Source of the DNA: a virus
IMG/VR virus record: IMGVR_UViG_3300048910_000190
Span: 49,158 to 113,157 of that record
Length of the DNA stretch: 64,000 nt
Strand: one strand, 5' to 3'
The notes under the pieces were generated by a model that worked only from the letters and a program-made list of their open reading frames with translations, was not told the origin of the DNA and did not search any database. Numbering within the stretch: position 1 is the first letter of the stretch; each line of letters opens with the position of its first letter. Position numbers and translations under genes: made by a program. Shown here piece by piece: positions 22,358-52,433 of the stretch.

Positions 22358-23895
22358 TCACCGCCGACGCCGTCCGACTTCGGATCAAAGGGCCACTCGG
22401 TGAAGCCCGGCTCGCCAGGGAAGACCAAACGCGTCCTGGCGCCTGCCGGCAGGCTGCGACTCGACGACTGGGCCCGCAGCACCTCCACGCGAACCACCTT
22501 GCGCACCACGTGACGCTGCTGCTCAAGGGTCATCTTGCGCGACCACAAGTCGTCCAATTCGTCCGGCGAAGCCGCCAGCAGCTCATCCAGCAGCGAATCG
22601 CCAGCTGACATCATCCGCTGCAGCCCCGCCTCGCACGCCGCAAGCAGTGGCACGATCCCCTGCTCCATCGCGGCCAACGATGCTGCTGACAACGCAGGCA
22701 GCCCCGTCTCCGGACTGAACGTCACGGCCTGCTGCCGAGCCTCGGCCAACTGGTTGGACATAGCCGCATGCCTGGCCCGTTCGCGCTCGATCTCGGCCGT
22801 GGAGTCAACCCGCTGAAAGGCACTTCGCGCGGCCGGCGAGGCCAACCAGAGCAGCAGGCCCTCTTCCACATAGGCGTCCAGCCTGGCTTTCATGATGCTC
22901 AGATGGTTCTGCGTGCACCGATACAGGGCCTTCCGGCTGTACTGCGGCCGGTCGCCCACCGCCTTCATGCGGGCAGCCTTGACGTCACCACCCTCTCGGC
23001 ATACCGAACACAAGGCGATTCCCGTCAAGAGGTGCTGAACGCCACTGGTGTGCGTCGTCAACCGCGCGGGGTCCTTGAGGATTGCCTGTACCCGCCAGAA
23101 CAGGGCCTCATCAACGATCGCATCCCACTGCGCCGGGTACTCGGTTTCCTTGTGGACCCGGATACCGATGTACGCCCTGTTCGTCAGGATGATCCGGAGA
23201 CCCGTTGTCTGAATATCCGGACGCCACGGCTTCATCAGCGGCAGGAGCGAGTTGAGACTGTGCTGTTCGTCGACCCGCTTGAACAGCTCCCGTACCACGG
23301 GGCCCTGCTCGGGGTGGACGACCTGACCGAGGAGCTCGCCGGTGTCCGGGTCGTACTCGCGCTTGAACCCGAAAGCGACCGGGGCGTGAGCGCCGCCGCG
23401 CCTGGCATTGAGGTTGACTGTTCGTACGATCCGAGAGGTGATGCCCTCGCCCTCCTCCTCGGCCTGGAGGGCGTCACGAGTGAACTCGCGGAAGTCGGAG
23501 GGGACGCGCATGTCGTACAGGCGGCCGTCGTAGTACAGCTTGATGTCTGTCCGCTCGCACAGGTCGCGAAGTCCGATGGACACCTGCATGTTGCGAGAGA
23601 GCCTGCTCTTCTCCGCGTAGACCACGACGTCGATCAGGCCGGCTTCCATGTCGGCGACCATGCGTTCGTAGTCCTCACGGACCTTTTTGGCTCGCCGTGA
23701 GGCGGATCGGTCGAGGTCCTTGTAGTAGTCGACGATGGTCCAGCGGTTGTCGGCGCAGACCATCTCACCGACGGCGAACTGGTCTTTGACGGATCGTCCG
23801 CGCTTGTTGCGGTCGCGGGAGGCGCGGCCGTAGAGGGCGGCGCGGAGAGGGCGCGCGAGGGCTTCCGACCTGGGCAGCGGGATGACGGTGGCCAT
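22354..23895 (-). CDS. int: Large serine integrase
   Basis: ALYGRASRD catalytic motif, SRLSR, recombinase domain, LLTGIALCSVC...YRC Zn ribbon, coiled coil; leaderless TATCCT-N6-ATG. Confidence 0.95.
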   Translation of the reverse strand: MATVIPLPRSEALARPLRAALYGRASRDRNKRGRSVKDQFAVGEMVCADNRWTIVDYYKDLDRSASRRAKKVREDYERMVADMEAGLIDVVVYAEKSRLSRNMQVSIGLRDLCERTDIKLYYDGRLYDMRVPSDFREFTRDALQAEEEGEGITSRIVRTVNLNARRGGAHAPVAFGFKREYDPDTGELLGQVVHPEQGPVVRELFKRVDEQHSLNSLLPLMKPWRPDIQTTGLRIILTNRAYIGIRVHKETEYPAQWDAIVDEALFWRVQAILKDPARLTTHTSGVQHLLTGIALCSVCREGGDVKAARMKAVGDRPQYSRKALYRCTQNHLSIMKARLDAYVEEGLLLWLASPAARSAFQRVDSTAEIERERARHAAMSNQLAEARQQAVTFSPETGLPALSAASLAAMEQGIVPLLAACEAGLQRMMSAGDSLLDELLAASPDELDDLWSRKMTLEQQRHVVRKVVRVEVLRAQSSSRSLPAGARTRLVFPGEPGFTEWPFDPKSDGVGGD

Positions 23896-23918
23896 GCGCA
23901 AAGGATAGGGCCAGTCAC

Positions 23919-27501: not shown

Positions 27502-27849
27502 TCACTCGCCCTTGGGGATGGCGGCGGTCGGGGCGGTGACCTGGGTGCGGACGAACATCGCGACGATCGCGGCGGCGAGGGACATGACGACGGCCTGCTG
27601 GTCGGCGGACCAGTGGAGGCCGAAGCCGACGGCCAGGGCGATGACGGCCTGGACGGCGCCGAGGAGGGCGGCGCTGATCCCGTCGTGGGCGATGACCGCG
27701 ACGACGAGGCCGACGATGGCCGCGGCCGCGGCGTTGATGACGGCCTGCTGGTCGGTGGTCACGTTGAGGCCGAACGCGGCGAGCGTCTTGACGAGGATCG
27801 CCACAAGGCCGAGCCACAGTGCGGGCTCTCTGGTGAAGAACTTGGGCAT
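27502..27849 (-). CDS. Holin
   Basis: FTREPALWLGLV; internally duplicated DQQAV motifs; four hydrophobic segments. Confidence 0.8.
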   Translation of the reverse strand: MPKFFTREPALWLGLVAILVKTLAAFGLNVTTDQQAVINAAAAAIVGLVVAVIAHDGISAALLGAVQAVIALAVGFGLHWSADQQAVVMSLAAAIVAMFVRTQVTAPTAAIPKGE

Positions 27850-27873
27850 GGGGTTTCTCTTCTCTGGGAGGGG

Positions 27874-28089
27874 TTAGGCCTGGAGGGCCTTGTCGTACGC
27901 CATGAAGCTGGCGTAGTCGCTGTCGGCGGAGCCGTTGGCGGTGTTCATGAGGATCACGTCGTCCTTCGGGGCGCCCCAGGCATTCCAGAGGCACCAGGGG
28001 ACGTGGATACGCAGGCCGTTCGGGTAGACGGCGAAGACCTCGTTGTGGGACGGGTGGCGGAAGAGGAGGACACCCTCGGGTGCGGCCAT
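27874..28089 (-). CDS. 71-aa protein directly after the amidase (possible separate cell-wall-binding subunit)
   Basis: ATG 2 nt after the amidase stop; aromatic beta-rich sequence. Confidence 0.65.
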   Translation of the reverse strand: MAAPEGVLLFRHPSHNEVFAVYPNGLRIHVPWCLWNAWGAPKDDVILMNTANGSADSDYASFMAYDKALQA

Positions 28090-28091
28090 GG

Positions 28092-28694
28092 TCAGACTCC
28101 CAGGTAGCGGTAGATGGTGGGTCGGTCCGGTGCGGGCGGCGGCGGCGGTACCGGCGCCGGGGTGGGCTGAGGCGGCTGCGGTGGTGCGGGGTTGAGGATC
28201 TGCCGGGCGCGGGCGAGGATCGCGGGGCGCTGGGCCTTGATGGGTTCGCCGGGGCAGTCGTAGTGGCCGCCCCAGGCGGCGCCGCCCATGCCGTGCCAAC
28301 CGAGGCCCGAGCCGCCCGGGTCGTCAGTGGACTGCAGCGGCACGCCGTAGGTCTGGTGCAGCCAGGCGAGCAGTTGGGCAGCGTTCTCCAGCTGGCTGGC
28401 CGTCAGCGAGTCGCCGCCGAAGCCTTCGTTCTCGATCGACACCCAGGCGGAGTTGCCAGCGGCCTCCGCCCACGCGCGGTCGTCGGTGTCGACGAGCTGG
28501 CGGAGCTGCCCGGACTTGGGGTTGAGGAAGTGCGCGGAAGCCTGGCTGTCCGGGTTCTTGAACCAGCTCTCGGAGCCGTCCTCATAACCTTCCTGGATGT
28601 GCAGGACGAGGCCGCGGTGGTCGGACATGCCGCCGATGCGGCGGTTGGGGGTGGGGCCGATCCAGTCGGCCCCGGGCATGCGTGCCACGGGCAT
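28092..28694 (-). CDS. Endolysin, N-acetylmuramoyl-L-alanine amidase (Amidase_2)
   Basis: LVLHIQEG, ASAHF, DTDDRAWA, SIENEG, HYDCPG; Pro-rich tail. Confidence 0.92.
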   Translation of the reverse strand: MPVARMPGADWIGPTPNRRIGGMSDHRGLVLHIQEGYEDGSESWFKNPDSQASAHFLNPKSGQLRQLVDTDDRAWAEAAGNSAWVSIENEGFGGDSLTASQLENAAQLLAWLHQTYGVPLQSTDDPGGSGLGWHGMGGAAWGGHYDCPGEPIKAQRPAILARARQILNPAPPQPPQPTPAPVPPPPPAPDRPTIYRYLGV

Positions 28695-28698
28695 CTCC

Positions 28699-29511
28699 TC
28701 AGAGGTTGTTCGCAGCGAGCCAGGTGCGCATGGCAGCCGCGAGCGCCTGGTTGCCGCTGGCCGGGGCTGGCGGAGTGGGCACTGGCGTCGGAGTGGTGGT
28801 CAAGGTGGGGACGGTCACGTCGCCCCGCTGGGAGAGGAGCCAGCTGAGGTCGGCGGCCGGGAGGTAGCCCCAGCCGGCCTGCCCCCAGCTCTCGCTCCAG
28901 GAGTTCGGGATCCAGTACTCGCCGGTGGTGGCGTCGTAGCGGGACAGTTCGAGCTCGTGGCCGCCTGCCAGGCCGGACGTCGTGGTGAGGATGATGCGGC
29001 CGTCGGGGGCGGTGTCGAACATCGACTGGAACCAGGGGATGCCGATGAGGACCGGGCCAGCCTGGAGTGCGGAGTTGAGGGCTGCGATGGAGAACGCGTG
29101 CGTGTACCCGCCCGCCAAGCCGAGCGCCTTCAAGGCCTTGGCGACACCGATGCCCGAACTGCCGGTGTCGGCGGGCGGGTACTCGCCGGTGATGCCGTCC
29201 AGCACCGTGGCGAGGCTGTACAGGGCAACGGCGAAGGTCTCGTCGAGCTGATGAACTCCGGCCGCGAACAGGCCATGTGAGGCCGCGGCCCCTGCCGGGG
29301 TGATGGTGACGCTGGTGGTAGCGGTCCGCCCCGCGGAGTCGGTACCGAGCAGGCCTGTGGCGGCGTTACCTGTACAGCTGCCGAGTTGGCCCTGGTCGAG
29401 GATCGGGATCCGGCGCGTCCAGTCGACGGTCTTGATGGCCGACTTGGGGAGGACGCCGTAGGCGTAGGCGAGCGAGCGAGGGTCGTGGTCGACGTGCCGG
29501 CCGAGACGCAT
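28699..29511 (-). CDS. Papain-like (C1) cysteine peptidase
   Basis: [11 protein letters not shown] (catalytic Cys), GGHE (His), NSWSESWG (Asn). Confidence 0.9.
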
Positions 29512-29624
29512 CACGCGGACGCACCCCCAGTCGGGCGAACCCGCACCGAACAGGTGGGTAGCGGTCCCGCGCACACGGGGGCGCCCGGCGGCCGGTTCGC
29601 GCCCCGCGCCTTGCTGAGAGCCAT
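29511..29624 (-). CDS. 37-aa leader ORF coupled to the peptidase
   Basis: RBS GAAGGGA then ATG; TGATG overlap with the peptidase start; no recognisable features. Confidence 0.35.
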
Positions 29625-29866
29625 GAGGGTTCCCTTCGGAGGGTCAGGTCAGTGCAGGCCCGGTGCAGGTCAGCGCCGTAGTCCGCGACCCTCCATCCCG
29701 GCCTGGCGCCGACACGCGCACCGGACCCGCACCCCCACAATCACCGCCCGCCCCACTCGCCCCGCAACGCCCTGACCTGCGTTTCCACCTGCCCCGGGCG
29801 GTCCCTCTAGCGTCTCCACCTGCGAACCGGCGACTCCGAGGGGCCGGCCGCCACGCGGGGCCCGGT

Positions 29867-29903
29867 CTGTAGCGGGCGCGGGCCCCGCCTTCGCCCGCTA
29901 CAG
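29867..29903. other. 12-bp perfect inverted repeat upstream of the glycosyltransferase operon
   Basis: CTGTAGCGGGCG-N13-CGCCCGCTACAG. Confidence 0.6.
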
Positions 29904-29923
29904 CCCGCTGATCGGAGCGTCAC

Positions 29924-30919
29924 GTGGCCATTCAGGCCCCCTCCTTGGACGCGTTCGGCCTGATGGCGGACCGCACCGGCTGCGGAACCTTGCGCATCGA
30001 ACTGCCGCTGACGGCCCTGCGCGCGCACAACATGGAGACGGCGTTCTCCGAGCGCATGTCAGAGCACCTGCAGACGCGGACGGTCATCGGTCAGCGCGTG
30101 TGCCTGCCCGGCATCACCGTCGCGTGGCAGAAGATGGCCGCCGCGCCGGATCACCCGAGGATGATCCTGGAGCTGGACGACGACCTGTGGCACGTCGACG
30201 GGACCAGCCCTATCGCGCACGCCTTCTTCAGCAAGCCGGGGGTGCTGGAGAACCTGGAGGCGAACCTGCGGGCGTCGGATGCGGTCACCGTCACCACCGA
30301 GAGCCTCGCGGACGTGGTGCGGCAGTTCAACGCGAACGTGCACGTCATCCCCAACTACCTGCCCGCGTGGCTGCTGGAGCACGAGCGGCCCCGGCGAGAC
30401 GGTGTGGTGACGATCGGCTGGGGCGGGTCTTCCACCCACCTCATGGACGTGGAGGAGATCGGCGGCCAGCTGCGGCAGGTCATGACCCGCAACCCGCACA
30501 CCGAGTTGCACCTGATGGGCTCCAACTATGCGAAGGAGCTGGGCGTCCGCGAGCGCGTGCGGCACAGCGAGTGGACCAACGACGTCCCGGCGTACTGGCG
30601 GGCCATCGACTACGACGTGATGCTCGCCCCGCTGCGCGCCAACGTCTTCAACGCCTCCAAGAGCCCTCTGCGCCCTCTGGAAGCGGCGATGCTCGGCATC
30701 CCCGTCATCGCCTCCGACTACGGGCCGTACGCCCAGTTCGTGCGGCACGGCGAGACGGGGTTCCTCGTGAAGCGCGACCACGAGTGGGGCAAGTACTTGC
30801 GCGAACTCGTCAACGACGAGGCGATGCGCAAGGAGATGGGCGCCGCCGGACGACGGCAGGCCGCCGACTGGACGATCGAGGGGAACGTTGAGCAGTGGCA
30901 GAAGGTGATCGAGGGATGA
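29924..30919 (+). CDS. Glycosyltransferase (GT-B, GT4-like)
   Basis: TGCGTLRIELPL, ELDDDLW, IGWGGS, MLAPL..NVFNASKS..LEAAMLGIPVIASDYGPY..VRHGETGFLV. Confidence 0.9.
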   Translation: MAIQAPSLDAFGLMADRTGCGTLRIELPLTALRAHNMETAFSERMSEHLQTRTVIGQRVCLPGITVAWQKMAAAPDHPRMILELDDDLWHVDGTSPIAHAFFSKPGVLENLEANLRASDAVTVTTESLADVVRQFNANVHVIPNYLPAWLLEHERPRRDGVVTIGWGGSSTHLMDVEEIGGQLRQVMTRNPHTELHLMGSNYAKELGVRERVRHSEWTNDVPAYWRAIDYDVMLAPLRANVFNASKSPLRPLEAAMLGIPVIASDYGPYAQFVRHGETGFLVKRDHEWGKYLRELVNDEAMRKEMGAAGRRQAADWTIEGNVEQWQKVIEG

Positions 30920-31635
30920 GCGACCTCATCGTCCTCGTGCCGACCCGGGGCCGGCCGGACAACCTGTGGCAACTGTGGCTCGCCTTCACCGAGACGTGCG
31001 CCGCCAGCACGCTGCTCGTTGCGTGTGTGGACGACGACGACCCGGAACTGGACGCCTACCGGAAGGTGCACGCGGCGGCGTGCGAGCAGGCACCAGCGGG
31101 CGACGGCGACGCGCGGTTCCTACTGCTCATCGGCCCCCGGCTGCGCCTGGGCGGGACGTTGAACCGGTATGCACCGTACTGGGCGACGCTGGCTCCGAAC
31201 GTCGGCTTCATGGGTGACGATCACCGGCCGCGCACCGTCGGCTGGGACCGGCAGTACATCGACGCTCTGGCTCAGTTGGGCACCGGCATCGTGTACGGCA
31301 ACGACCTGATCCAGGGCGAGGCACTACCCACGCAGGCCGCCATGACCTCGGACATCATCCTCGCCACCGGCCACATGCTGCCGCCCGGCCTGGTTCACCT
31401 CTGGGTCGACAACGCGTGGCTGGAGCTGGGCCGGGCGCTTGGCGCCATCGCCTACCTGCCCGATGTGATCGTCGAGCACTGCCACCCGATCGCGTCGAAG
31501 GCGGCGTGGGACGCCGGCTATGCGGAGTGCAACACCGACGAGCTGATGGACGCCGACCGGGCCGTGTTCGAGGCGTGGCGGGCCAACGACCTGGACCGCT
31601 GGGTCCAGCAGATCAAGGAGTATCAGCGTGGCTGA
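30916..31635 (+). CDS. Glycosyltransferase (GT-A, GT2-like)
   Basis: IVLVPTRGRP, CVDDDD, FMGDD (DxD-like), LWVDN, VEHCH. Confidence 0.85.
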   Translation: MSDLIVLVPTRGRPDNLWQLWLAFTETCAASTLLVACVDDDDPELDAYRKVHAAACEQAPAGDGDARFLLLIGPRLRLGGTLNRYAPYWATLAPNVGFMGDDHRPRTVGWDRQYIDALAQLGTGIVYGNDLIQGEALPTQAAMTSDIILATGHMLPPGLVHLWVDNAWLELGRALGAIAYLPDVIVEHCHPIASKAAWDAGYAECNTDELMDADRAVFEAWRANDLDRWVQQIKEYQRG

Positions 31636-32023
31636 CCCCTCCAAGCAGCGCCCTGGTGACCAGCCGCTGCCCGAGCCCGGCCGCGAGTGTGTGCAGGACG
31701 CACTCATCGCGCAGATCGAGGAGCGCAAGCAACTCGGCATCGAGCGGTACGGCCGCCCGCTGGAGACCCACAACGGCCGCGATGCCGTTCAGGATGCCGT
31801 TGAGGAGGCGATCGACCTTGCGGTGTACCTGAAGCAGGTCGAGTTGGAGATGCGCGACGTCCGCGCCGAGCGGGACCAACTCGCCACGACTCTCGATGAA
31901 GTCCTGCGCCAGTTCGTGCACCGCACGCACCCTGGCCAGCCGTGTCTCCAGAGCAACCACGTCTCGGCGGATCAGGTCGATGACTGGCGGAGTGTGCTCG
32001 CAACGAAGGGTGCGCCGCGATGA
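31628..32023 (+). CDS. All-alpha protein, possibly MazG-like NTP pyrophosphatase
   Basis: GIERYG...DAVEEAIDLAVYL acidic EExxD helix. Confidence 0.5.
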   Translation: MADPSKQRPGDQPLPEPGRECVQDALIAQIEERKQLGIERYGRPLETHNGRDAVQDAVEEAIDLAVYLKQVELEMRDVRAERDQLATTLDEVLRQFVHRTHPGQPCLQSNHVSADQVDDWRSVLATKGAPR

Positions 32024-32622
32024 CCGAGTACCGCCTGTTCGCCGGCGACGTGCCGCACGTCTCCACCGCCGAGTTCCACGAGCACCGCGAGCGGGCCCCA
32101 CACCTGGAGCAGCCCGTACACCGGCCCCGCCTGGACACGGCCGCAGAGCTGGTCCGTGACGCCCTCGGCCGCCTCGGCCCTGCCTCCCGGAGCGTCTCCG
32201 ACCTCGGGTGCGGAGACGGTGGCCTCCTGTCCCTGCTTCAGGCCGATGAAGGTGTGTCCTGCTGGGGCTACGACTTCCAGCCCTCGAACCAGGCCGGCTG
32301 GCGGGAACGCGGAGTGCGGGCCTACCCGTACGACGCGTTCGGCGCCGGCCGCGACCGGGTGCAGTTCGGGAACGTCGCCGTGATGACCGAGGTGCTGGAG
32401 CATCTCGCGACGCCTCACGAGGTCGTGCGGTGGGTCGCACTGCGCTCCCGGTTCGTCGTGGCGTCGTCGCCGTGGACGGAGACGCCCGAGTCCCACGACG
32501 AATGCCACTGCTGGTGTTGGGATCAGGACGGCTACCGGGCGCTAATCGAGCAGGGCGGCTTCACCGTGCTGCGCCACGAGACCGTCGGACAGTTCCAGTT
32601 GATCCTCGGGGAGCAGTCATGA
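32020..32622 (+). CDS. Class I SAM-dependent methyltransferase
   Basis: SDLGCGDGGLL, WGYD, TEVLEHL. Confidence 0.9.
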   Translation: MTEYRLFAGDVPHVSTAEFHEHRERAPHLEQPVHRPRLDTAAELVRDALGRLGPASRSVSDLGCGDGGLLSLLQADEGVSCWGYDFQPSNQAGWRERGVRAYPYDAFGAGRDRVQFGNVAVMTEVLEHLATPHEVVRWVALRSRFVVASSPWTETPESHDECHCWCWDQDGYRALIEQGGFTVLRHETVGQFQLILGEQS

Positions 32623-32996
32623 GCAGACTCTCCGGCCATGCGTGGACCACCCTCTACCGCGCGCAGAACCTGTGGCACGACATGCTCGCTCGACTGTTGG
32701 GCTACTGCAACGACTGCCCCTGGCGGCCCGACCCAGGGGAGGGCGCCGGATACTCCCACTGGCGATGCGGCTGGAAGCGGGGTCACGAAGGTTTGCACCG
32801 CTACCGCAACTACGCCTGGTCAGACGACGGCAACTGCGACTACGTGCCCGTGCCTCATGGCCGGACATGGCCCACCCAGCCGAATGACCGCCGGTCTGTG
32901 CTGACCCGCCGCCAGCAGCGTCGGCGGAGGGCATGGGAAGAGCAGCAGCACGCAGAGAGGCTCCTGGCTCTCGCCCCCCACTCTGAGGCGGAGTAG
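32619..32996 (+). CDS. Cys/His-containing hypothetical protein
   Basis: CNDC and RCGWKRGHEGLH motifs; coupled to neighbours. Confidence 0.65.
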   Translation: MSRLSGHAWTTLYRAQNLWHDMLARLLGYCNDCPWRPDPGEGAGYSHWRCGWKRGHEGLHRYRNYAWSDDGNCDYVPVPHGRTWPTQPNDRRSVLTRRQQRRRRAWEEQQHAERLLALAPHSEAE

Positions 32997-32998
32997 CG

Positions 32999-33874
32999 AT
33001 GCGCGTCCTGATCACCGGTCACCGCGGCTTCATTGGCCGACACCTGGCCGCAGCCTGTGAAGCGCGCGGGTGGGAAGTGACCGGCGTCGACCTCGTGGAC
33101 GGAGACGACGCCCTCGACTTCTTCCGCTACCGACAAGACGAGCGCCGGTACGGTATCGCGTTCCACTGCGCCGCGATCGTCGGTGGCCGGGCCAGCATCG
33201 ACGGTCATCCCCTCGGCGTCGGCACCAACCTCGCCCTCGACAGCTGGTTCATGCGGTGGCTCGTCAGCTCCGGCACGCCCCGAGCCGTCTACTACTCCAG
33301 CTCGGCCGCGTACCCTGTCGCGCTGCAAGGCGAGAACTCGGGACACCGCCTGCGCGAGGACGACATCGACCTTGAGCGGCCCGGGCGGCCGGACGCCACC
33401 TATGGCCTCGCGAAGCTGACCGGCGAGCAGCTCGTGCCGTACGCCGAGGCGGAGGGCTGCCGCGTGCATGTGCTGCGCCCCATGTCCGGGTACGGCGCCG
33501 ATCAGGCCCTCGACTACCCGTTCCCCTCGTTCATCGCACGCGCCAAGCGCGGTGACGACCCCTTCGAGATCTGGGGAACCGGACGGCAGGTCCGCGACTG
33601 GATCCACATCGACGATGTCGTGGGCGCGACGCTGGCCGTCGTGGACCAGGACGTGACCGGGCCCGTCAATCTCGGAACCGGCCGGGCAACCAGCTTCAAC
33701 GAGCTCGCCCGGGCGGTGTGTGCGGCGGCCGGCTACCAGCCGTGGCTCAAGCACATCATCGGCGCCCCAGACGGGGTGCAGTACCGCGTCGCTGACCCCA
33801 CCAAGATGCTCACCATCTACCAGCCCAGGGTGACCCTCGAAGAGGGCATTCGTCGCGCTCTGGAGGCAGCATGA
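32999..33874 (+). CDS. NAD-dependent nucleotide-sugar epimerase/dehydratase (extended SDR)
   Basis: VLITGHRGFIG, YYSSSAAY, YGLAK (YxxxK), RDWIHIDD, NLGTG. Confidence 0.93.
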   Translation: MRVLITGHRGFIGRHLAAACEARGWEVTGVDLVDGDDALDFFRYRQDERRYGIAFHCAAIVGGRASIDGHPLGVGTNLALDSWFMRWLVSSGTPRAVYYSSSAAYPVALQGENSGHRLREDDIDLERPGRPDATYGLAKLTGEQLVPYAEAEGCRVHVLRPMSGYGADQALDYPFPSFIARAKRGDDPFEIWGTGRQVRDWIHIDDVVGATLAVVDQDVTGPVNLGTGRATSFNELARAVCAAAGYQPWLKHIIGAPDGVQYRVADPTKMLTIYQPRVTLEEGIRRALEAA

Positions 33875-34806
33875 GTGCTCACGAGATGACCGCCGAGCAG
33901 TACGTCCCGTTCGCGGTGGCCCTTGAGGTCAACCGGCGGGATGCCATCGCTGGCCTGACTGTCTTCAAGCGCCCCCTGCCATCCTGCCCGGTATGCGGCA
34001 AGGCAACGAGCAGTGTCACCACACGAACCGCCGACTACTCCTTCGCAGGATCAGGCTCTGTTGCGGTCTCTCTGCCGTGTGGCCACGTTCTGACCATCAG
34101 CGAGCAACTCGTTTGGGACCTGGCGGACACCGTGCGGAACCTCGCCGACTGGGAGTGCAACCGACCCGTCGGCCAGCACCTGGAGGGGCCGCAGCCTCCC
34201 CGCGTGAAGCTGCAGCCCGGCATCTCCGTCGTCGTGCCGACCCATCCGGCGCGGGTTCGCAACGGCATGACGAAGCGCGCCGTCGGCAGCGTGCTCGGGC
34301 AGACCCTGCCCGCCGCGGCCATCATCATCGAGCAGGACCTGACGCGGGCTGGTGCCGCGGCAACCCGGCACCGCGGGCTGATGAAGGTCACCACCGAGTG
34401 GGTCGCGTTCCTCGACAGCGACGACCAGATGAAGCCCAACCACCTGGCCGAGCTCATGGCCTGCGCCGAGGAGACCGGCGCCACGTATGTCTACAGCTGG
34501 TACGAAGCCGTCGGGTTCGGCGCGGACCCGCTGCCGCACTTCGGGAGGCCCTTCGACCCGGCGTCGCCGACGCAGACCACCATCACCACCCTCGTCCGCG
34601 CCGAACTCGCCCAGGCCGTCGGCTTCCGCGAACCCCCGCCCGGAGCACTGATCAACGGCGAAAGGTACGGCGAGGACTTCCAATTCACCATCGAGTGCCT
34701 CGCCGCTGGCGCCCGCATCGTCCACCACCCGGCGCGCACCTGGCTCTGGAACTACCACGGCGCCAACAGCTCCGGCCAGCCCGGCCGCGGCGACGCCACT
34801 CACTGA
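33871..34806 (+). CDS. GT2 glycosyltransferase with an N-terminal Zn-ribbon-like domain
   Basis: CPVCG...LPCGH, then ISVVVPTH, WVAFLDSDD, GEDF. Confidence 0.85.
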   Translation: MSAHEMTAEQYVPFAVALEVNRRDAIAGLTVFKRPLPSCPVCGKATSSVTTRTADYSFAGSGSVAVSLPCGHVLTISEQLVWDLADTVRNLADWECNRPVGQHLEGPQPPRVKLQPGISVVVPTHPARVRNGMTKRAVGSVLGQTLPAAAIIIEQDLTRAGAAATRHRGLMKVTTEWVAFLDSDDQMKPNHLAELMACAEETGATYVYSWYEAVGFGADPLPHFGRPFDPASPTQTTITTLVRAELAQAVGFREPPPGALINGERYGEDFQFTIECLAAGARIVHHPARTWLWNYHGANSSGQPGRGDATH

Positions 34807-34818
34807 GAAGGGGAATCC

Positions 34819-35025
34819 ATGGCCACCATCGACCCGAATCGGGCACTGCCCGTCTATCAGGCCCGCGTCAGCAACATGATCAACGACATCATTCTCCGAG
34901 ACATCGCCATCTCCGAACTGGAGGAGAGCAACAGTCGGCTCCAGCAGGAGAACGTGGACCTGAGGAAGCAGGTCCACGACCTGACCCCAGGCCGCGACCC
35001 GGCTGCTCCCTCCGAGGTTGACTAG
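34819..35025 (+). CDS. Small coiled-coil protein
   Basis: ISELEESNSRLQQENVDLRKQV; RBS AAGGGA. Confidence 0.7.
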   Translation: MATIDPNRALPVYQARVSNMINDIILRDIAISELEESNSRLQQENVDLRKQVHDLTPGRDPAAPSEVD

Positions 35026-36245
35026 GCGACGCGGGTGAAACGCAGGTGCGAGCCGGCGCGCAGGCCGGTGGCGGAGCCGTTGGACGCGTTCTGTGCCCAC
35101 CGGAGTTGGACGTTGCCGCTGGTGCTGCTGACGGTGATGTAGGCGCGGATGTTGCAGCCCATGTCCGTGGAGCCGTTGGTGCCGACCACGCGGGCCGTGG
35201 TGCTGGCGTTGACCGTCGCCTCGTACGAGGTTGCGGGCGAGGAAGCAACGACACCGAACGACGTGTACTTCATGGTCGCCCCGGAAGGGATCGTGAAGTC
35301 GAACTTGAGATCGCCGGCCGACGGGGTACTACCGAAGATCATCAGGTAGCCGTCGACGATGTACGTGGCGTTGGCGCTGAGGGACGCGACGAGGTGATCG
35401 TCATTCTGCAAGGTCGTGTTGCTGGTGACGGACTCGTCAGCGGTCTTGATGACCGCGATGGTCTGCCCAATGCCATAGACCGCCAGGCTCCCGTTGACGG
35501 TCAGGGTGTAGGTCAGGGGCGACGCCGCGTTGCCGAAGAAGCTCGCTGGCCCGCTGTCCGCTTGAATCCCCAGGGCCGCCGCTGCGCCGTTGTTGACGAC
35601 CTGGATCTCGTTGTTGTCCATCCGCAGGTTGAGCCCGGAGTCGGGCCCGATCTGGAACGCGTGACTGGTGGAGCTGTTGCTGACGTCAGCCGTCGACGTG
35701 AGACGAAACGCGCTGTCGCTGGCAAGAAACCCCACCCCGGACCGGTACAGGTTGGTGTCGCGCGCACCCGAGCCGGGGCCTATGTCGATGCGCCCGTCGG
35801 CGCGAATCTGGATGCGGTCCTGGCTGTCCCCGGAGACTCGGCCGCCGTAAGCGATCCCGGCGGCCGCGGCATGCTCGGTGAGTACGGCGGCTGCGGTGTT
35901 GCCCCCGCCGAAGGTGTTCGCCACGCGCAGGGTGGTGGCGTCGGTGGCGCGGCTGGCCCATACCTGGCCGGCGTAGGTTGCGCTGCTGTTGGGGTACTCG
36001 ACCCAGCCTGCCGAGGCCGGCGAAGTGCCGTTGTGGACGTACGAGCGGTAGCTGTTGTTGGACTCCAGGATGTGCTGCCCGCCGTAGGGCGTGGAGGGGC
36101 GCGTGCTGGAGGTGACGATACGGGAGCCGACCGCGAGGTCGAGGGCGTCCCAGTTGTTGAGGAGGTCGGTGACGACGTTGACGAGGTCGGAGCCGTCCGA
36201 GCTGGTCTTGTAGAGGCTGAGGCGGGGTGTGGTGGTTGCGGTCAT
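35022..36245 (-). CDS. Minor tail / tail fibre protein
   Basis: TTTPRLSL...NNWDALD N-terminus typical of fibres; beta-rich C-terminal domain. Confidence 0.8.
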   Translation of the reverse strand: MTATTTPRLSLYKTSSDGSDLVNVVTDLLNNWDALDLAVGSRIVTSSTRPSTPYGGQHILESNNSYRSYVHNGTSPASAGWVEYPNSSATYAGQVWASRATDATTLRVANTFGGGNTAAAVLTEHAAAAGIAYGGRVSGDSQDRIQIRADGRIDIGPGSGARDTNLYRSGVGFLASDSAFRLTSTADVSNSSTSHAFQIGPDSGLNLRMDNNEIQVVNNGAAAALGIQADSGPASFFGNAASPLTYTLTVNGSLAVYGIGQTIAVIKTADESVTSNTTLQNDDHLVASLSANATYIVDGYLMIFGSTPSAGDLKFDFTIPSGATMKYTSFGVVASSPATSYEATVNASTTARVVGTNGSTDMGCNIRAYITVSSTSGNVQLRWAQNASNGSATGLRAGSHLRFTRVA

Positions 36246-36715
36246 CGGGCTGCCTTGCTGGTGCGGTGGGGGAGGGCGGCGTGGCCTTGGCCGTTGACGT
36301 GGTCGTGGATGGCGCGGGCCCGGTCGGGGTTGATGGTGTGGTGGCGGATCAGGTCGAGCGGGTCCGCGCTCGGGGCGCCGGAGGGGCCGCGGCGGGGCGG
36401 GGAGACGATGCGGACACGGTTGGCCTTGGTGTCGGCGATCCGCTGGAGGAGGTCGGCTCGGGCCGCGTCACGGCTGGCCGGGGTGGACTGGGGGCGGCCG
36501 TCGTCGGGCATGTGCGGCTCGTGGAGGACGACGTCGAGGAGCGTGTCCAGGTCTGCAGGGTCGATGCCGTACTCGGCGGCCCGCCACGCGAGCGTGTCCA
36601 CCGGGAGGACGTGCAGGTGGGCCTGCCCGTCGGGGCGGAGCTGGTGGATGAACCAGCAGTCGGTGCCGCCGACGAGCGCCCGGGTGACGCCGGTGACGGT
36701 GAACGTGTCAGTCAT
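36242..36715 (-). CDS. Tail-region hypothetical protein (possible fibre chaperone)
   Basis: LAWRAAEYGIDP..LDVVLHEP; position between tail genes. Confidence 0.7.
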   Translation of the reverse strand: MTDTFTVTGVTRALVGGTDCWFIHQLRPDGQAHLHVLPVDTLAWRAAEYGIDPADLDTLLDVVLHEPHMPDDGRPQSTPASRDAARADLLQRIADTKANRVRIVSPPRRGPSGAPSADPLDLIRHHTINPDRARAIHDHVNGQGHAALPHRTSKAAR

Positions 36716-36723
36716 AAGTCCCC

Positions 36724-39546
36724 CTAGACCCTGTACGACCAGATGTTGACGGCGCCTGAGGCGCTCGCGCTGAATGAGGCGGTGAACCCGGTGGTGGACG
36801 AGGCGGAGATCTGCGTGGACTTGGCTGCGCCGGAGTCGACCAGCGTCACCAGGGGAACCATGGTCGATGCCATCGTCGCGCCGTACGTCAGGGACACCCC
36901 GCTGACTCCGGAGATCGACACCGATCCGGTGAAGACCGCGTCCTTCGAGGACGCCGCGACGTAGTTGTTGAACTTGCCGACAAGCCGGACCAGTCCGGTG
37001 TCGTGAAACTTCAGCATGCTCGACGACGCCGAGCCCTCGGTGATGTCGAATCCGATCTGCGTGTACGTGTCGTTGACGATCCAGTAGCCCTTGTTGTTGG
37101 TCTGGAGGCGGGTGTCGGTCGCCCCGATTGCGAGGGAGTGGCCGAAGCCGGTGTTGTAGCCGATGTACGCGCTGCTGTCGTCGAGGGACAGGACCGTGGC
37201 CCCGGCATTCTCGGCGCTCGACTGGAAGAGCAGCCCGGGGACGAAGCCGCTGGCGAAAGCTCCGATCGACGAGTAGTCCGTTGCGGAGTAGTCGGTGTAG
37301 CAGCGGATCTCTGGCTGTCCGACACCGACGGGGTTGACCACCAGACGGTTGGAGCCGGCGATGCCCGTCGCGAACGTGCCGATGATTGACACGTTGCCGG
37401 TGGCTGATGCGATGTCGACGGTCTGGGTGCCAGCCGCGTTGAAGGCCTGCAGCCCGGCGGAGTTGAGCTCGACACGAGCCCCGGTGTCGGCGGTCTTGAT
37501 GCGGGCGCCGACGATCCAATCCGCGTTGATGGTCCCGGCGGTGACCTTGCTGACGGTCAGGTCAGAGATGTGCGCGTCGTCGATCAGCAGAGCCGTGGCC
37601 GTGGCGGCGTCGGACGGCGCGGACTTGTTGCCCGCGATGTCGACCGCGATGACGCGCACGTACCGGGCGGAGGTCTCTTCGACCTGCACGGTGGTGACGA
37701 CCGGCACCTGAGCCTGGATCATGCCCGCTGTGGCGGAGACCTTGGCCTTGAGGGTTGTCGGGGACGGCGTGAAGTACGGCTCGTACTCGACGTGGATCTC
37801 CAGGTGGTGGAGGTCCGCTTCGAGGTTGTAGGTGCCGCCGCTTGCCCGGCCGAGCGTGTGCGTGATCTGCAGGGCGATGCGGGACGCCGCCACCGACGGC
37901 GGCGCGGGTGTGCTCGGGGGAATGTTGTCGGCGGTGGCCACGATCGTTGTCGTTGGCGACCACGCCCCGATGTTGCCGGCCCGGTCAACCGCGCGGATCT
38001 GCAGGTCGTAGCCGATGCCGGGCGCCAGGTCGAGGAGCTGCGCGGTGGTGGTCCCCCACGCGACGTTCATGTACTGCCACTGGCCGGTGGGGGCGGCGAA
38101 AGGCTGCCGCCACTGCTGCAGGTCCTCCCATCGGACCTGGGAGAGCTGGGACCAGGTGGCGGGGTAGATCAGGTCGGTGTCGACGGCCCACCGCAGTTCG
38201 TAGTGGTCGCCGTCGAGGACCGTGGAGCCGTCGGTGTTGTTGGGGGCGTTCCAGGCCGTGATGAGGCGGGCCCGGGTGAAGCCCCGGTTGTCGAGGTAGG
38301 CGGCGCCGGAGAACGGGGTGATGAACGTCGGAACGCCGGGGATGGACGTGTCGGCGGTGGGGCGGGAGCCGACGGGTTCGGTGCTGGAGTTGGTGAGCTG
38401 TCTCTCGAAGTTGCCGACGACCACGGTGGTGGTGCCGTCGGGTTCGAACGTCACGTAGTCCGTGAGGTCGGTCCACGCGCCTGCGGCGGACCGGTAGCCG
38501 ACGGTGTGCCCGGCGGTGACGGGCCACGTCGTCTCGGTGACCTGCAGCTTCAGCGGGTTGAGGCGCTGCCCCCGGAAATTGATCTCGTTGGCGGTGTCAA
38601 CGAGGCCCTTGTCCGGGTCGTACGTCCACACGTAGTCGCCCGGGATGAAGCTCCCCGCGATGTCGTAGTCAGCGGCGGTCAGGGTGAGGGCGTGGTGCGG
38701 GCCGGTGAACTGGGAGAGGGCCAGCTGCGCGCGGACGATCGCGTTGGTCTGCGAGGTGCCGGACTCGGACACCATGCGGGTGAACGCGACGCTGTTGCCG
38801 TGCAGGTCCTTGTACGGGTTGAGGGCGGGGTTGATGTTGGCGGAGCCGGTGGCGATGGACGCGCCTTCGCCCTGCGCGAGGAGGACGACGCGGGTGGTGA
38901 AGTCCTGCACGTCCTCGGCAAGGTTCAGCTGTCCGGGGAGTGCGAGGAGGTTCATGTCCTGACCGGCGCCGCGTTTGACGATCGCGCATGCCGGGGTGGT
39001 GACGAAGAGGTTGGACTCCGGGCCCGCGTCGAGGGTGCCGTTGCCGTTGACCCGCCACGACACGGGCACGGCAGTGGTGGACATGGTGTCGCACACGTAC
39101 TGGATGGCCTTGCGGGGGGTTTGCCACTGGTGGACGCCGGAGTAGGTGCCCGCAACCGAGTACAGGGTGCCCTCGGTGATTGCACCGGAGGACGGGAGCA
39201 GGCCGCGGATGGCGGTCGGGAACGAGGCGGAGATGAAGGCGAAGGGGCTCTCGATTACGGCGCCCTTGTCGTCCTCGTCGCCGAGCCAGAACTCCAGTCC
39301 ACTGCCGCCGATCTGGACCATGTCGGCCCGGGTGCGGGCGTCGTCGGAGAAGGTCTTTGAGCGGACGACGCCGACGTACCGGGCGGCGGTGAGGAGGTTG
39401 TCGCCGTAGGCGCGGGGGTCGATGCGTCCGGCGACGATCGCGATGTGGCCGAGTTCTTGGACGGCGTCGAGTACGTCGCGCGGGCAGTCCGGCTTGAGGG
39501 CGATCTGCCAGGAGCCGAGGGCGGTGTGGACTTGGGTGACGGGCAT
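36724..39546 (-). CDS. Minor tail (hub/central fibre) protein with FN3-like domains
   Basis: About 940 aa; YDLQIRAVDRAGN and YVRVIAVDIAGNKS FN3 signatures. Confidence 0.85.
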   Translation of the reverse strand: MPVTQVHTALGSWQIALKPDCPRDVLDAVQELGHIAIVAGRIDPRAYGDNLLTAARYVGVVRSKTFSDDARTRADMVQIGGSGLEFWLGDEDDKGAVIESPFAFISASFPTAIRGLLPSSGAITEGTLYSVAGTYSGVHQWQTPRKAIQYVCDTMSTTAVPVSWRVNGNGTLDAGPESNLFVTTPACAIVKRGAGQDMNLLALPGQLNLAEDVQDFTTRVVLLAQGEGASIATGSANINPALNPYKDLHGNSVAFTRMVSESGTSQTNAIVRAQLALSQFTGPHHALTLTAADYDIAGSFIPGDYVWTYDPDKGLVDTANEINFRGQRLNPLKLQVTETTWPVTAGHTVGYRSAAGAWTDLTDYVTFEPDGTTTVVVGNFERQLTNSSTEPVGSRPTADTSIPGVPTFITPFSGAAYLDNRGFTRARLITAWNAPNNTDGSTVLDGDHYELRWAVDTDLIYPATWSQLSQVRWEDLQQWRQPFAAPTGQWQYMNVAWGTTTAQLLDLAPGIGYDLQIRAVDRAGNIGAWSPTTTIVATADNIPPSTPAPPSVAASRIALQITHTLGRASGGTYNLEADLHHLEIHVEYEPYFTPSPTTLKAKVSATAGMIQAQVPVVTTVQVEETSARYVRVIAVDIAGNKSAPSDAATATALLIDDAHISDLTVSKVTAGTINADWIVGARIKTADTGARVELNSAGLQAFNAAGTQTVDIASATGNVSIIGTFATGIAGSNRLVVNPVGVGQPEIRCYTDYSATDYSSIGAFASGFVPGLLFQSSAENAGATVLSLDDSSAYIGYNTGFGHSLAIGATDTRLQTNNKGYWIVNDTYTQIGFDITEGSASSSMLKFHDTGLVRLVGKFNNYVAASSKDAVFTGSVSISGVSGVSLTYGATMASTMVPLVTLVDSGAAKSTQISASSTTGFTASFSASASGAVNIWSYRV

Positions 39547-39547
39547 G

Positions 39548-40768
39548 TCAGCGCCTCGCCGTGTAGGTGGCTTCGGCGAGCGCGCCGATGTACATGTTCC
39601 GCAGGTCTGTCGCGGCGTCACCGGACACTGCGCTCCCGCCTCCGGCGACGACGCCGAGCCAGAAGTCGAGCGTCGCGGTGGTGGCCTTGGACACGCCGAG
39701 GTTGGCATGCGCGGTGAAGGTGCGGGCGCTGCCGGCCGCGGCCCGGTTGCCGTCCGTGTCGTTGCCGGTGGCGACGACGTAGCCGGACGCGGCGGCGTTG
39801 GTGTTGGTCTCGGAGGTGGCGAGGTACACGGCGAGGGTGGAGGCCGCGCCGGACTGCAGGTAGCCCTCTACGAAGCGAGAGCCGCGGCGCAGGGTGAGGT
39901 CGAGGGTGACGCGGCCGGGGGAGCGTGGCGCGGTGAGGCGTAGGACGCACTGCTCGACGTCGTTGCGGAGCATGGTGGCGGAGTCCCAGGCGGCGACGTT
40001 GGAGCCGCCGACGGTGATGTTCCACCGCTTGGAGTGCCAGGCGCCGCCTGTGTAGGACTGGACGTCGAGGACGCCCGCCGTGGCGGTGGGGGTGACGTTG
40101 ACGAGGGCGTTGCCGAGAGTCCACGCGGCGACGGGCACGGGCTGGCCGATGCCTTCCAGTTCGAAGCCGGAGCCCGTCGCGGTGGCAGTGTCGTTGATGC
40201 GGACACGGCCGTTCAGGTAGTTGGCGGGGTCGCAGCCCCAGCGGGGCGAGGTTCCGGCGGGGATGCCGCGGTAGACGGTCATGGCGCCATCGGCTCCCGT
40301 GCGGGTCATCAACGTCGGGTTGGTGGCGCCCGTGTAGTAGGTGGTGTGGCCGATCGGCGGGGCGTGCCAGGTCTCCCCGGTGAGCGCGAAGTCGTTGGCT
40401 CGGACAGCGCCGGTCAGCCTGCTCTGCAGGTCGACTTCGGAGGCCGCACCGAGGCGCGTCAGGGCGACCTTCCAGGTCGAGGTCACCATGTCGCCGACGA
40501 GCTCGCGCAGCACCGCGCTGGAGCTCTTGACTGTGTAGTAGCCGTTGCGTTCCGGCTTGTCCGTCCACGTCACCGCGATCGGGGTGCCCTGCTCCAAGGC
40601 CTCCAGGTTGTCGTGCCGGGCTACGAGTACGGCACGGGTCAGGGGCGGATTGGACTCCTGGCCGTCGAGGTCGAGGGTGCGGTCGTCTCCTGCCGAGGCC
40701 TCCGTGACGGTGAAGGTTTCCCGCAGCGTGGTGCGGCCGAGCTGGATCGTGCCCCAGGTGCCGGTCAT
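39548..40768 (-). CDS. Distal tail / minor tail protein
   Basis: First gene after the tape measure; beta-rich. Confidence 0.8.
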   Translation of the reverse strand: MTGTWGTIQLGRTTLRETFTVTEASAGDDRTLDLDGQESNPPLTRAVLVARHDNLEALEQGTPIAVTWTDKPERNGYYTVKSSSAVLRELVGDMVTSTWKVALTRLGAASEVDLQSRLTGAVRANDFALTGETWHAPPIGHTTYYTGATNPTLMTRTGADGAMTVYRGIPAGTSPRWGCDPANYLNGRVRINDTATATGSGFELEGIGQPVPVAAWTLGNALVNVTPTATAGVLDVQSYTGGAWHSKRWNITVGGSNVAAWDSATMLRNDVEQCVLRLTAPRSPGRVTLDLTLRRGSRFVEGYLQSGAASTLAVYLATSETNTNAAASGYVVATGNDTDGNRAAAGSARTFTAHANLGVSKATTATLDFWLGVVAGGGSAVSGDAATDLRNMYIGALAEATYTARR

Positions 40769-45845: not shown

Positions 45846-46019
45846 TCAGTCCTCCTTCGCCGCTGGTGCGGCAGTTGTCGCCCGGACGGGCTCGGTGACG
45901 GGACTCGGCGAGGCGGAGGGTTCCTCGACGAGCAGGCCCTGGGCGTGGAGGTCGAGGTACTCGGCGGGTGAGACCTCCACCTCCACGTCGGGGCGGAACG
46001 TGGTGCGGACGACGGTCAT
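45846..46019 (-). CDS. Small virion-region protein with Ser/Thr/Pro-rich tail
   Basis: VRTTFRPDVEVEV..EYLDL; coupled start. Confidence 0.7.
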   Translation of the reverse strand: MTVVRTTFRPDVEVEVSPAEYLDLHAQGLLVEEPSASPSPVTEPVRATTAAPAAKED

Positions 46020-52367: not shown

Positions 52368-52433
52368 ATCGCCCTCCATCGTCTCGGATCGCGATCACCA
52401 TAGGAGCCGGGCCAGTTCGGGCTGCGACACGTT

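Follow-up and report, generated by a model that had tools for sequence, protein, structure and literature searches.

A counter-oriented glycan operon between the tail and lysis genes of a temperate Kitasatospora/Streptomyces-type phage, with virion proteins as a candidate target

The window analyzed here, a 64,000-nucleotide stretch of a 135-kb virus record, carries between its tail and lysis genes an operon that encodes three glycosyltransferases (GTs), a SAM methyltransferase and an SDR epimerase, all without membrane segments. The best reading of this operon, which we hold with about even confidence, is a phage-encoded glycan-building kit that acts on virion proteins; a methylated oligosaccharide made with the phage's own sugar-nucleotide enzyme is a plausible product. 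The phage is a temperate siphovirus of Kitasatospora/Streptomyces-type bacteria with a serine integrase, and its sequence was found only in root and soil metagenome DNA runs. Gene content and published precedent fit the glycan operon proposed in the first-pass annotation, but the clues to its target taken from the tail tube and from a small protein fail, as described below.

Positions 29924–35025 are filled by eight plus-strand ORFs, rather than the seven genes first counted, which form one translationally coupled operon. The seven junctions measure −4, −8, −4, −4, +2, −4 and +12 nt, with ATGA overlaps at four of them, in agreement with the tight coupling noted earlier. Both flanks are on the minus strand, as originally described: tail genes at 35022–44481, including a 1237-aa tape measure, on one side, and lysis genes (C1 peptidase, 28699–29574; amidase, 28092–28694) on the other. 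The operon runs convergent with the tail operon and opposite to the late genes, and adjoins the tail-fibre genes. The third-position GC of the ORFs (0.82–0.94) is that expected of coding sequence in a genome of 70% GC, and a hydrophobicity scan gave no membrane span among the eight proteins (maximum KD19 1.65). The genes are as follows:

29924–30919, plus strand: g1, GT4-family (GT-B) glycosyltransferase, 331 aa, from Pfam and PHROG matches
30916–31635, plus strand: g2, GT-A fold glycosyltransferase, 239 aa, whose ATG overlaps the g1 stop
31628–32023, plus strand: g3, small helical protein, 131 aa, matching only PHROGs of unknown function
32020–32622, plus strand: g4, class I SAM-dependent methyltransferase, 200 aa, PF13489
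32619–32996, plus strand: g5, small basic Cys/His-rich protein, 125 aa, with an ATGA overlap with g4
32999–33874, plus strand: g6, extended-SDR NAD-dependent sugar-nucleotide epimerase/reductase, 291 aa, PF01370
33871–34806, plus strand: g7, GT2 glycosyltransferase with a Cys-rich N-terminal extension, from Pfam and PHROG matches
34819–35025, plus strand: g8, coiled-coil protein, 68 aa, whose stop overlaps the convergent tail-fibre stop

GT4 membership was judged by a Glycos_transf_1 domain above the Pfam gathering score. The g1 protein exceeds the cut-offs for both PF00534 (E = 8.8e-15; 55.1 bits against 26.4) and PF13692 (49.6 bits against 27), which upholds the GT4-like enzyme of the first reading. 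It also matches phrog_7162 (E = 1.2e-53), and its orthologues in relatives and Kitasatospora prophages are 56–77% identical, while gp6 of Streptomyces phage KimJongPhill is 39% identical. For GT2/GT-A enzymes the criterion was a GT-A Rossmann-like fold with a DxD metal/nucleotide-sugar motif, and g2 and g7 were both assigned to this class. Two GT2-like enzymes had been proposed; g7 has the corresponding Pfam domain (PF00535, E = 2.9e-10; 40.8 bits against a cut-off of 23.3), whereas g2 stands as a GT-A fold enzyme for which the Pfam search gave no match. The AlphaFold2 model of g2 (pLDDT 94.5) has a GT-A fold, and Foldseek matched it to AvpGT, WrtF, chlorella virus hyaluronan synthase, TarP and SpsA (E = 6e-9 to 1e-6); its structural neighbours also include TarS and RmlT, which like TarP are wall-teichoic-acid glycosyltransferases. 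Residues D39/D41/D42 and G100-D101-D102 are invariant, and none of the >2000 homologues of g2 has a Pfam domain. The protein matches phrog_14945 "glycosyltransferase" (E = 1.9e-44), as well as phrog_2675, which is labelled "DNA methyltransferase". The predicted fold, the invariant D101-D102 and phrog_14945 together identify g2, at the level of a structural model, as a GT-A glycosyltransferase.

The PF00535 match of g7 is confined to residues 116–306, and the protein also matches phrog_14775 (E = 1.2e-41). The GT2 part (residues ~116–306) is preceded by a Cys-rich N-terminal extension of ~110 aa. In relatives, g7 consists of the ~200-aa GT2 domain alone (78–84% identity), and the N-terminal piece is a separate ORF in relatives L008 and L049. 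The extension has a third-position GC of 0.79, against 0.92 for the GT2 domain.

The SAM methyltransferase and the nucleotide-sugar epimerase/dehydratase of the first-pass annotation were both recovered. The g4 protein matches PF13489 (E = 3e-10), has orthologues of 64–75% identity at the same position in relatives, and is probably an O-methyltransferase with a sugar as its presumed substrate; neither the (D/N/S)PP(Y/F/W) nor the PCQ motif of DNA methyltransferases was seen when its translation was inspected. The g6 protein matches PF01370 (E = 3.5e-33; 115 bits) and phrog_540 (E = 1e-49), and its translation has the N-terminal GxxGxxG and catalytic YxxxK motifs by which extended SDRs were recognized. 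Among PDB entries it is most similar to MoeE5, GDP-mannose 3,5-epimerase, GDP-fucose synthase and UDP-glucose 4-epimerase. All NCBIfam matches were far below cut-offs, and the search gave no subfamily or substrate call.

The three small proteins are less conserved. The g3 model (pLDDT 82.6) is a two-helix hairpin for which a PDB fold search gave no match, and g3 is missing from the compact cassettes of relatives. Its proposed likeness to MazG, a family of all-alpha NTP pyrophosphohydrolases judged here by profile or four-helix-bundle fold matches, was dropped: neither Pfam (E ≤ 10), PDB sequence and profile searches, the Atlas nor the fold search supported a MazG-family relationship. Searches with g5 (third-position GC 0.83; pI 9.3; 4 Cys and 8 His) gave no informative match, and relatives have no conserved g5. 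The g8 gene (third-position GC 0.84) has a homologue of 67% identity in relative L045 and contains a perfect 10-bp hairpin at 34953–34978; its stop and that of the tail-fibre gene share CTAG at 35022–35025.

Upstream of g1 we found two conserved elements, a putative promoter and a candidate regulatory leader:

29764–29816, plus strand: promoter-like blocks upstream of the operon, conserved in relatives
29772–29788, plus strand: promoter-like block CTGACCTGCGTTTCCAC
29808–29816, plus strand: promoter-like block TAGCGTCTC, TAnnGTCTG in relatives
29855–29908, plus strand: structured 5' leader with two interleaved GC-rich stems

Both blocks are kept across 8–9 relatives, while the ~20 nt separating them varies, and their spacing differs from that of canonical sigma-70 promoters. 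In the leader, stem 1a:1b is 10 bp and stem 2a:2b is 8 bp, with an extra copy of the 3' arm (2b'). The leader occurs once in the window, and relatives carry it upstream of g1. Compensatory double changes are seen in stem 2 in four relatives (L005, L054, L044 and L055) and in stem 1 in L044. Pairing at two G.T wobbles is possible on the plus strand alone, and the fold z-score is −3.7 on that strand versus −2.1 on the minus strand. An Rfam search with the leader gave no match. The earlier suggestion that the operon is expressed independently of the late transcript is plausible, given the conserved promoter-like blocks and structured leader that belong to it. A simple promoter scan found nothing at 29764–29816.

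Kitasatospora prophages and IMG/VR relatives carry the five-enzyme core at this location with its gene order unchanged, and in other relatives the same site holds different sugar genes. A GT4 homologue is present in all seven of the related-tube records that are at least 34% complete; the five records without one are fragments, 14–33% complete. The cassette is at the same site in every locus with recognized flanking tail or lysis genes. By these sequence comparisons, it appears to be a fixed part of the phage lineage rather than a sporadic add-on. Variant islands in relatives, as well as KimJongPhill, add a prolyl-hydroxylase-type 2OG-Fe(II) oxygenase (PF13640), which this window's cassette lacks. 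A broader proposal, to which we give only a modest chance, is that soil Streptomycetaceae phages share one fixed, always counter-oriented glycan island, placed between tail-fibre and lysis genes, with at least three swapped enzyme sets, the type-1 island being driven by a conserved two-state leader RNA. The sets would be:

Set 1: GT4/GT-A/MT/SDR/GT2
Set 2: GT4/2OG-oxygenase/NTP-transferase/MT/GT2
Set 3: GT4 with several SDRs

If the operon glycosylates virion proteins, a short methylated oligosaccharide would be assembled on phage structural proteins in the host cytoplasm, during infection or after induction. The g6 enzyme would convert a common host NDP-sugar to its epimer, one glycosyltransferase would attach the first sugar to Ser/Thr in a virion protein, the remaining two would lengthen the chain, and g4 would O-methylate one of the sugars. 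A lytic-cycle function is argued for by KimJongPhill, in which an SDR–MT–GT4 trio sits immediately upstream of terS and reads the same way as the structural genes. As candidate acceptors, the first-pass annotation had named the tail tube, which ends ...EATS, and the 45846–46019 protein with its S/T/P-rich tail; both features are present in the translations. However, both recur in Microbacterium phages OscarSo and Wyvern, which gave no GT1- or GT2-family match: their homologue of the tail tube ends ...DATS, and that of the small protein carries a low-complexity tail. These are thus family traits and not signs of glycosylation. An ...ATS end in GT-less phages is still compatible with that end serving as acceptor. 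Comparison of capsid C-termini revealed no Ser/Thr extension that tracks cassette type, and this lack of an acceptor signature weighs against virion proteins as the target.

Phage sugar-chain systems are already known from mycobacteriophages, and virion glycosylation is a standard idea in actinobacteriophage annotation. As described in passages of four articles (PMC11600133, PMC12363180, PMC11256854 and PMC13445384) that cite Freeman et al. [quoted passage not shown] Like Che8 (gp108–110) and Corndog (gp35–38), the present phage has about three tandem GTs, soluble cytoplasmic enzymes and an actinobacterial host, and, with g4 as a probable O-methyltransferase, it resembles the Corndog set in that enzyme as well; it differs in the added GT4 enzyme and SDR epimerase. 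The Corndog GT genes lie inside the structural operon and those of Che8 at the right genome end, whereas here they are counter-oriented between tail and lysis genes. In BLASTP comparisons with the Che8 and Corndog enzymes, which are 47–56% identical to each other, the sole match was g7 to Che8 gp108 (19% over 98 residues; E = 3e-4 in a 3-sequence and 7e-4 in a 7-sequence database), and no mycobacteriophage was among the matches listed by tblastn for g1, g2 and g7. The g7–gp108 similarity is that of generic GT2 domains and not orthology, which counts against virion glycosylation.

Closer counterparts are the annotated GT/MT genes (4–6 and 107–110) of Streptomyces phages KimJongPhill and Zuko (Zukovirus), which include true orthologues of g1 (35–39%) and of the g7 GT2 domain (54–58%), accompanied by an SDR and methyltransferases. 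KimJongPhill, whose g7 orthologue is 58% identical, is related to this phage in its capsid protein (55%), tail tube (52%) and terminase (49%), and a search for an integrase in it gave no match. In these phages, however, the genes are divided between opposite ends of the genome, with the g1 set pointing in the same direction as the packaging genes and with the oxygenase as an addition. In Actinoplanes phage phiAsp2, a GT cassette (pas33–pas35) directly follows the tail genes, and the N-terminal domain of pas34, 37% identical to g2, is fused to a methyltransferase domain, which suggests a functional tie between the two activities. The phiAsp2 cassette differs in having the tail-gene orientation, no GT4, no epimerase, and a methyltransferase of PF13578 rather than the PF13489 of g4.

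To our knowledge, virion glycosylation by phages has been shown so far only in mycobacteriophages, where it is discussed as antibody evasion. If the present reading is correct, a non-orthologous, larger and variable kit in soil Kitasatospora/Streptomyces phages would mean that the trait was assembled more than once and would suggest a role that has nothing to do with animal immunity, for example in stabilizing the particle, in keeping it from adsorbing to debris, or in masking receptors. A glycan coat on the virions, diversified in an antibody-free environment, would point to a non-immune role of phage glycosylation, and the leader, if correctly read, would be a new cis-regulatory RNA controlling it. 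The five-gene core, its natural variants at the same site and the candidate leader have comparative value, and controls are available in relatives that share the tube and capsid families but have no GT.

The main rival, which we consider unlikely, is that the soluble GTs modify a host envelope polymer, decorating a wall glycopolymer or lipid-linked precursor at the cytoplasmic membrane face. This could alter the phage receptor and block superinfection or re-adsorption of progeny, as with TarP on staphylococcal wall teichoic acid. The phage is temperate, with a serine integrase, and the operon is moron-like, pointing against the late genes and preceded by conserved promoter-like blocks and a leader of its own; moron-type genes are often expressed from prophages, and this architecture counts against virion glycosylation. 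So do the structural neighbours of g2 (TarP, TarS and RmlT): GT2 is the family of TarS and TarP, and TarM belongs to GT4, the family of g1. The variable gene content of the site is what one would expect if diversifying selection acted on a surface antigen. Against envelope modification, the operon has no flippase, polyprenyl-phosphate GT, GT-C membrane protein or membrane segments; the cassette is not patchy but present in every adequately complete relative; and orthologues of g1 and g7 are found near packaging genes in the integrase-less KimJongPhill. Its five enzymes also exceed the need of the phage wall-polymer modifiers known to us, which are single GTs. TarP, from a Staphylococcus aureus prophage, is likewise a soluble GT-A enzyme, but it is a single enzyme with a trimerization domain and no accompanying methyltransferase, epimerase or further GTs, and is only about 10–13% identical to g2. 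A Gtr-type seroconversion cassette (GtrA/GtrB/GtrC) was also rejected, in view of the missing bactoprenol-phosphate GT and membrane-span-like segments and the lack of any corresponding Pfam match.

Rather improbable is another cytoplasmic acceptor: only a minor virion component, for instance the tail fibre or the receptor-binding protein, or else a small molecule or a non-structural protein of phage or host. The operon adjoins the tail-fibre genes, an acceptor signature is lacking on capsid and tube, and the PF13640 oxygenase of the variant islands hints that hydroxylated protein residues are the acceptors in those phages. That type of oxygenase is absent here, however; the one tail protein read for this purpose, a 407-aa tail-fibre translation, has no collagen-like or Ser/Thr tract; and antibiotic-type glycosyltransferases belong to GT1, not to GT4 or GT2.

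Glycosylation of modified DNA bases as an evasion of restriction, the last target suggested at first, is very improbable: in T4-type and TET-associated systems, phages do have GTs that glucosylate hydroxymethylated bases, but no partner gene for base glycosylation was found in the 135-kb record among those searched for (thymidylate-synthase/hydroxymethylase, PF00303; TGT/DpdA, PF01702), g4 is of the small-molecule type, and three GTs with a sugar-nucleotide epimerase suit an oligosaccharide better than a base adduct. The "DNA methyltransferase" label of phrog_2675 traces to phiAsp2 pas34, which is noted as a putative O-methyltransferase and carries the Pfam domain Methyltransf_24.

The eight plus-strand genes at 29924-35025 (g1-g8) constitute a real, well-conserved phage glycan operon. 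The ORFs lie between two minus-strand blocks, one for the tail and one for lysis, with junctions of -4, -8, -4, -4, +2, -4 and +12 nt, four of which have an ATGA overlap. Their third-position GC (0.82-0.94) is the coding signature of this genome. The first-pass annotation had described a seven-gene operon with a possible MazG-like member; the operon stands, but it contains eight genes and the MazG assignment was not upheld.

Features of the glycan operon
29855-29908, plus strand: structured leader, 54 nt, GC-rich, following two conserved blocks; conserved in relatives and unique in the window
g1, plus strand: GT4 glycosyltransferase (PF00534, phrog_7162)
g2, plus strand: GT-A domain glycosyltransferase (phrog_14945; no Pfam match; predicted fold, pLDDT 94.5)
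g4, plus strand: class I SAM methyltransferase
g6, plus strand: extended short-chain dehydrogenase/reductase (SDR) with GxxGxxG and YxxxK
g7, plus strand: GT2 domain (residues 116-306) after a Cys-rich extension of ~110 aa
g3, g5 and g8, plus strand: small proteins without assigned function

The structural neighbors of the g2 model are AvpGT, WrtF, a viral hyaluronan synthase, TarP and SpsA, and D101-D102 is invariant in g2. The solved relatives closest to g6 are MoeE5, GDP-mannose 3,5-epimerase, GDP-fucose synthase and a UDP-glucose 4-epimerase; none of the NCBIfam models came close to its cut-off. Database searches with g5 and with the N-terminal extension of g7 returned no informative match. 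This extension (window 33871-34215) is Cys-rich, with a CxxC ... CGH arrangement. A MazG identity for g3 found no support in Pfam at E ≤ 10, in PDB sequence and profile searches, in the Atlas or in a fold search with the g3 model (pLDDT 82.6), which is a helical hairpin, and was rejected.

The parent record is 135 kb long with ~70% GC, and the window corresponds to its bases 49158-113157. The runs listed for the sequence are all root and soil metagenome DNA, none of them RNA, and a search for nucleotide matches to the window among deposited phages found none. The surrounding genes include a siphovirus late module, a lysis block and a serine integrase, which indicates that the phage is temperate.

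Genes surrounding the operon
52434-53984, minus strand: large terminase (late module)
50817-52379, minus strand: portal (late module)
coordinates not given, minus strand: scaffold (late module)
47959-48876, minus strand: major capsid protein (late module)
45282-45842, minus strand: tail tube (late module)
40768-44481, minus strand: tape measure, 1237 aa (late module)
down to 35022, minus strand: minor tail and fiber genes (late module)
28699-29574, minus strand: C1-type peptidase (lysis)
28092-28694, minus strand: Amidase_2 lysin
22354-23901: serine integrase

Upstream of the terminase, a 1165-aa fiber-like protein (window 55048-58545, minus strand) contains a polysaccharide deacetylase domain (PF01522, E 2e-5). 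The nearest relatives of the cassette genes are in prophages of three Kitasatospora isolates, and g2 homologues are numerous in Streptomyces and Kitasatospora genomes, so the host most likely belongs to the Streptomycetaceae.

The core enzymes g1, g2, g4, g6 and the GT2 domain of g7 occur in the same order in the IMG/VR records L005, L007, L009, L044 and L045 and in the Kitasatospora prophages L054-L056, in each case counter-oriented and flanked by tail-fiber and lysis genes. The order is also kept in L012, where the flanking genes were not recognized. In the compact form, L055, the five genes are contiguous and span 3.75 kb; g3, g5, g8 and the g7 extension are additional insertions among them in the window. 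Only this phage has the extension fused to GT2; L008 encodes it as an ORF of its own (8589-8846) and L049 within another ORF (7152-7895). Its behavior is that of a mobile small domain. At the same site in L008 and L010, orthologues of g1 and g7 bracket other genes, which in L008 encode a prolyl-hydroxylase-type 2OG-Fe(II) oxygenase, an NTP-transferase and a different methyltransferase, while L047-L049 carry a distant GT4 (~35%), two or three SDRs and another GT2. Of 12 records found via the tail-tube protein, the seven with a completeness of 34% or more all encode a GT4 homologue, and the five lacking one are all 14-33% fragments. Thus, the island is stably kept in the lineage, and its cargo varies.

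At 29764-29816, where g1 and the lysis peptidase gene diverge, lie two blocks, CTGACCTGCGTTTCCAC and TAnnGTCTG, at 29772-29788 and 29808-29816, that are conserved across relatives and separated by a variable spacer of ~20 nt. They look promoter-like, although their spacing is not that of a canonical sigma-70 promoter. A simple scan of 27800-36500 for sigma-70 promoters and intrinsic terminators gave nothing useful. The leader that follows comprises two stems with interleaved arms (1a:1b, 10 bp; 2a:2b, 8 bp), and the 2b arm is present twice. Each arm was located explicitly before pairs were counted, as MAFFT placed the 3' arm wrongly in two rows. Stem 2 stays paired despite double changes in L005/L054, L044 (two) and L055, and the second copy of 2b follows these changes. 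In stem 1 there is a single double change, and its two G.T wobbles can pair on the plus strand only. These compensatory changes and strand-specific wobbles favor a leader in the operon mRNA that takes up either of two mutually exclusive folds and may act as a terminator/antiterminator or riboswitch-like switch for the glycan genes. Rfam gave no match for the leader, and scanning viral contigs for its pattern located it only in the known relatives. In L014, a match to the stem-1 pattern lies beyond the 3' end of the tube gene; it is only a plain hairpin and was rejected as the same element. Together, the blocks and the leader support the earlier proposal that the operon could be expressed independently of the late transcript.

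At the 3' end, CTAG at 35022-35025 is common to the stop of g8 and that of the convergent 407-aa tail-fiber gene, and an intergenic terminator is therefore absent. Within g8, at 34953-34978 and 44 nt beyond the fiber stop on the minus strand, there is a perfect 10-bp hairpin that may terminate the late tail operon from inside a gene on the opposite strand.

Passages in papers citing Freeman et al. 2023 (PMC11600133, PMC12363180, PMC11256854, PMC13445384) describe O-linked glycans on the Che8 capsid, glycosylation of mycobacteriophage capsid and tail-tube proteins by the phages' own glycosyltransferases, and an O-methyltransferase with three tandem glycosyltransferases in cluster O phages. While the Che8 and Corndog enzymes share 47-56% identity with each other, those of the window showed only generic GT2 similarity to them (g7 versus Che8 gp108, E ~3e-4 to 7e-4 in tiny databases). 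No orthologues were found, and orthology was rejected: the cassette resembles these systems on paper, without shared descent. On sequence comparison, the operon is a non-orthologous addition to the phage glycan systems already known. The inference of glycan operons is already routine in actinobacteriophage genome papers, and only the variable island at a fixed site and the structured leader exceed expectation.

Putative glycosyltransferases have reportedly been noted in some Streptomyces phages. Protein orthologues of g1 and g7 are found in the Streptomyces phages KimJongPhill and Zuko; the KimJongPhill capsid, tube and terminase are 55%, 52% and 49% identical to those of the window phage. Its gp4-6 (SDR, methyltransferase, GT4) immediately precede terS and are oriented like the structural genes, and gp107-110 encode a GT2, a methyltransferase, a second GT2 and a 2OG oxygenase. 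Neither a tyrosine nor a serine integrase was found in this genome. The GenBank name of gp4 (L002:1199-2251), UDP-glucose dehydrogenase, looks wrong, since its Pfam matches are to the NAD-dependent epimerase/dehydratase and GDP-mannose 4,6-dehydratase families (E 2e-42, 4e-35). Homologues of g2 occur in 63 Streptomyces phage records, e.g., Jay2Jay and Blueeyedbeauty, and in the Actinoplanes phage phiAsp2, where a glycosyltransferase cassette directly follows the tail genes. There, pas34 fuses a g2-like domain to a methyltransferase domain, which supports action of the methyltransferase on the glycan.

We give virion proteins about an even chance of being the target of glycosylation, favored by precedent, the number of enzymes, the universality of the island in the lineage and the orthologues beside packaging genes in an integrase-less phage. 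In mycobacteriophages, capsid and tube subunits reportedly carry the glycans at their C-termini. The tube of the window phage ends in ...EATS, and Ser or Thr is among the last two residues in 23 of 24 relatives. This end and a 57-aa protein with an S/T/P-rich tail (45846-46019) had initially been taken as acceptor clues. However, the Microbacterium phages OscarSo and Wyvern, with 33-kb genomes and no annotated glycosyltransferase or match to PF00535 or PF00534, have a ~50% identical tube ending in ...DATS and a homologue of the small protein with its own low-complexity tail. Both features are therefore not evidence of glycosylation, although these ends could still serve as acceptors. In the capsid proteins, neither a C-terminal Ser/Thr extension (13 relatives and the two phages lacking glycosyltransferases) nor any other C-terminal or loop difference tracked island type.

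Modification of the host envelope is a weaker, tentative alternative. It would suit a temperate phage with a counter-oriented unit that has its own upstream elements and variable cargo, and teichoic-acid glycosyltransferases belong to the GT4 and GT2 families; but the operon lacks membrane components, and the universality of the island and the packaging-gene neighbors in KimJongPhill again argue against it. Somewhat less probable still are other cytoplasmic acceptors, such as the fibers only or other proteins. Prolyl-hydroxylase-type oxygenases (PF13640) adjoin glycosyltransferases in L008 (10184-10834) and in the lytic-looking Zukovirus KimJongPhill (gp110; L003:3990-4634); this suggests that in those phages protein hydroxylation might precede glycosylation, and is a hint that their acceptors are proteins. 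DNA bases, also proposed initially, are a very improbable target: a search of the record for modification partners yielded no thymidylate-synthase/hydroxymethylase or TGT homologue, g4 lacks DNA-methyltransferase motifs, and three glycosyltransferases and an epimerase are better suited to an oligosaccharide.

The small protein at 45846-46019 (minus strand), whose gene directly precedes that of the tail tube, combines a conserved N-terminus of ~35 aa with a variable Pro/Ala/Thr-rich tail. Its homologues (L051:13993-14280, L052:1319-1498) are found among Streptomyces-type and Microbacterium phages, whether or not these carry glycosyltransferase genes.
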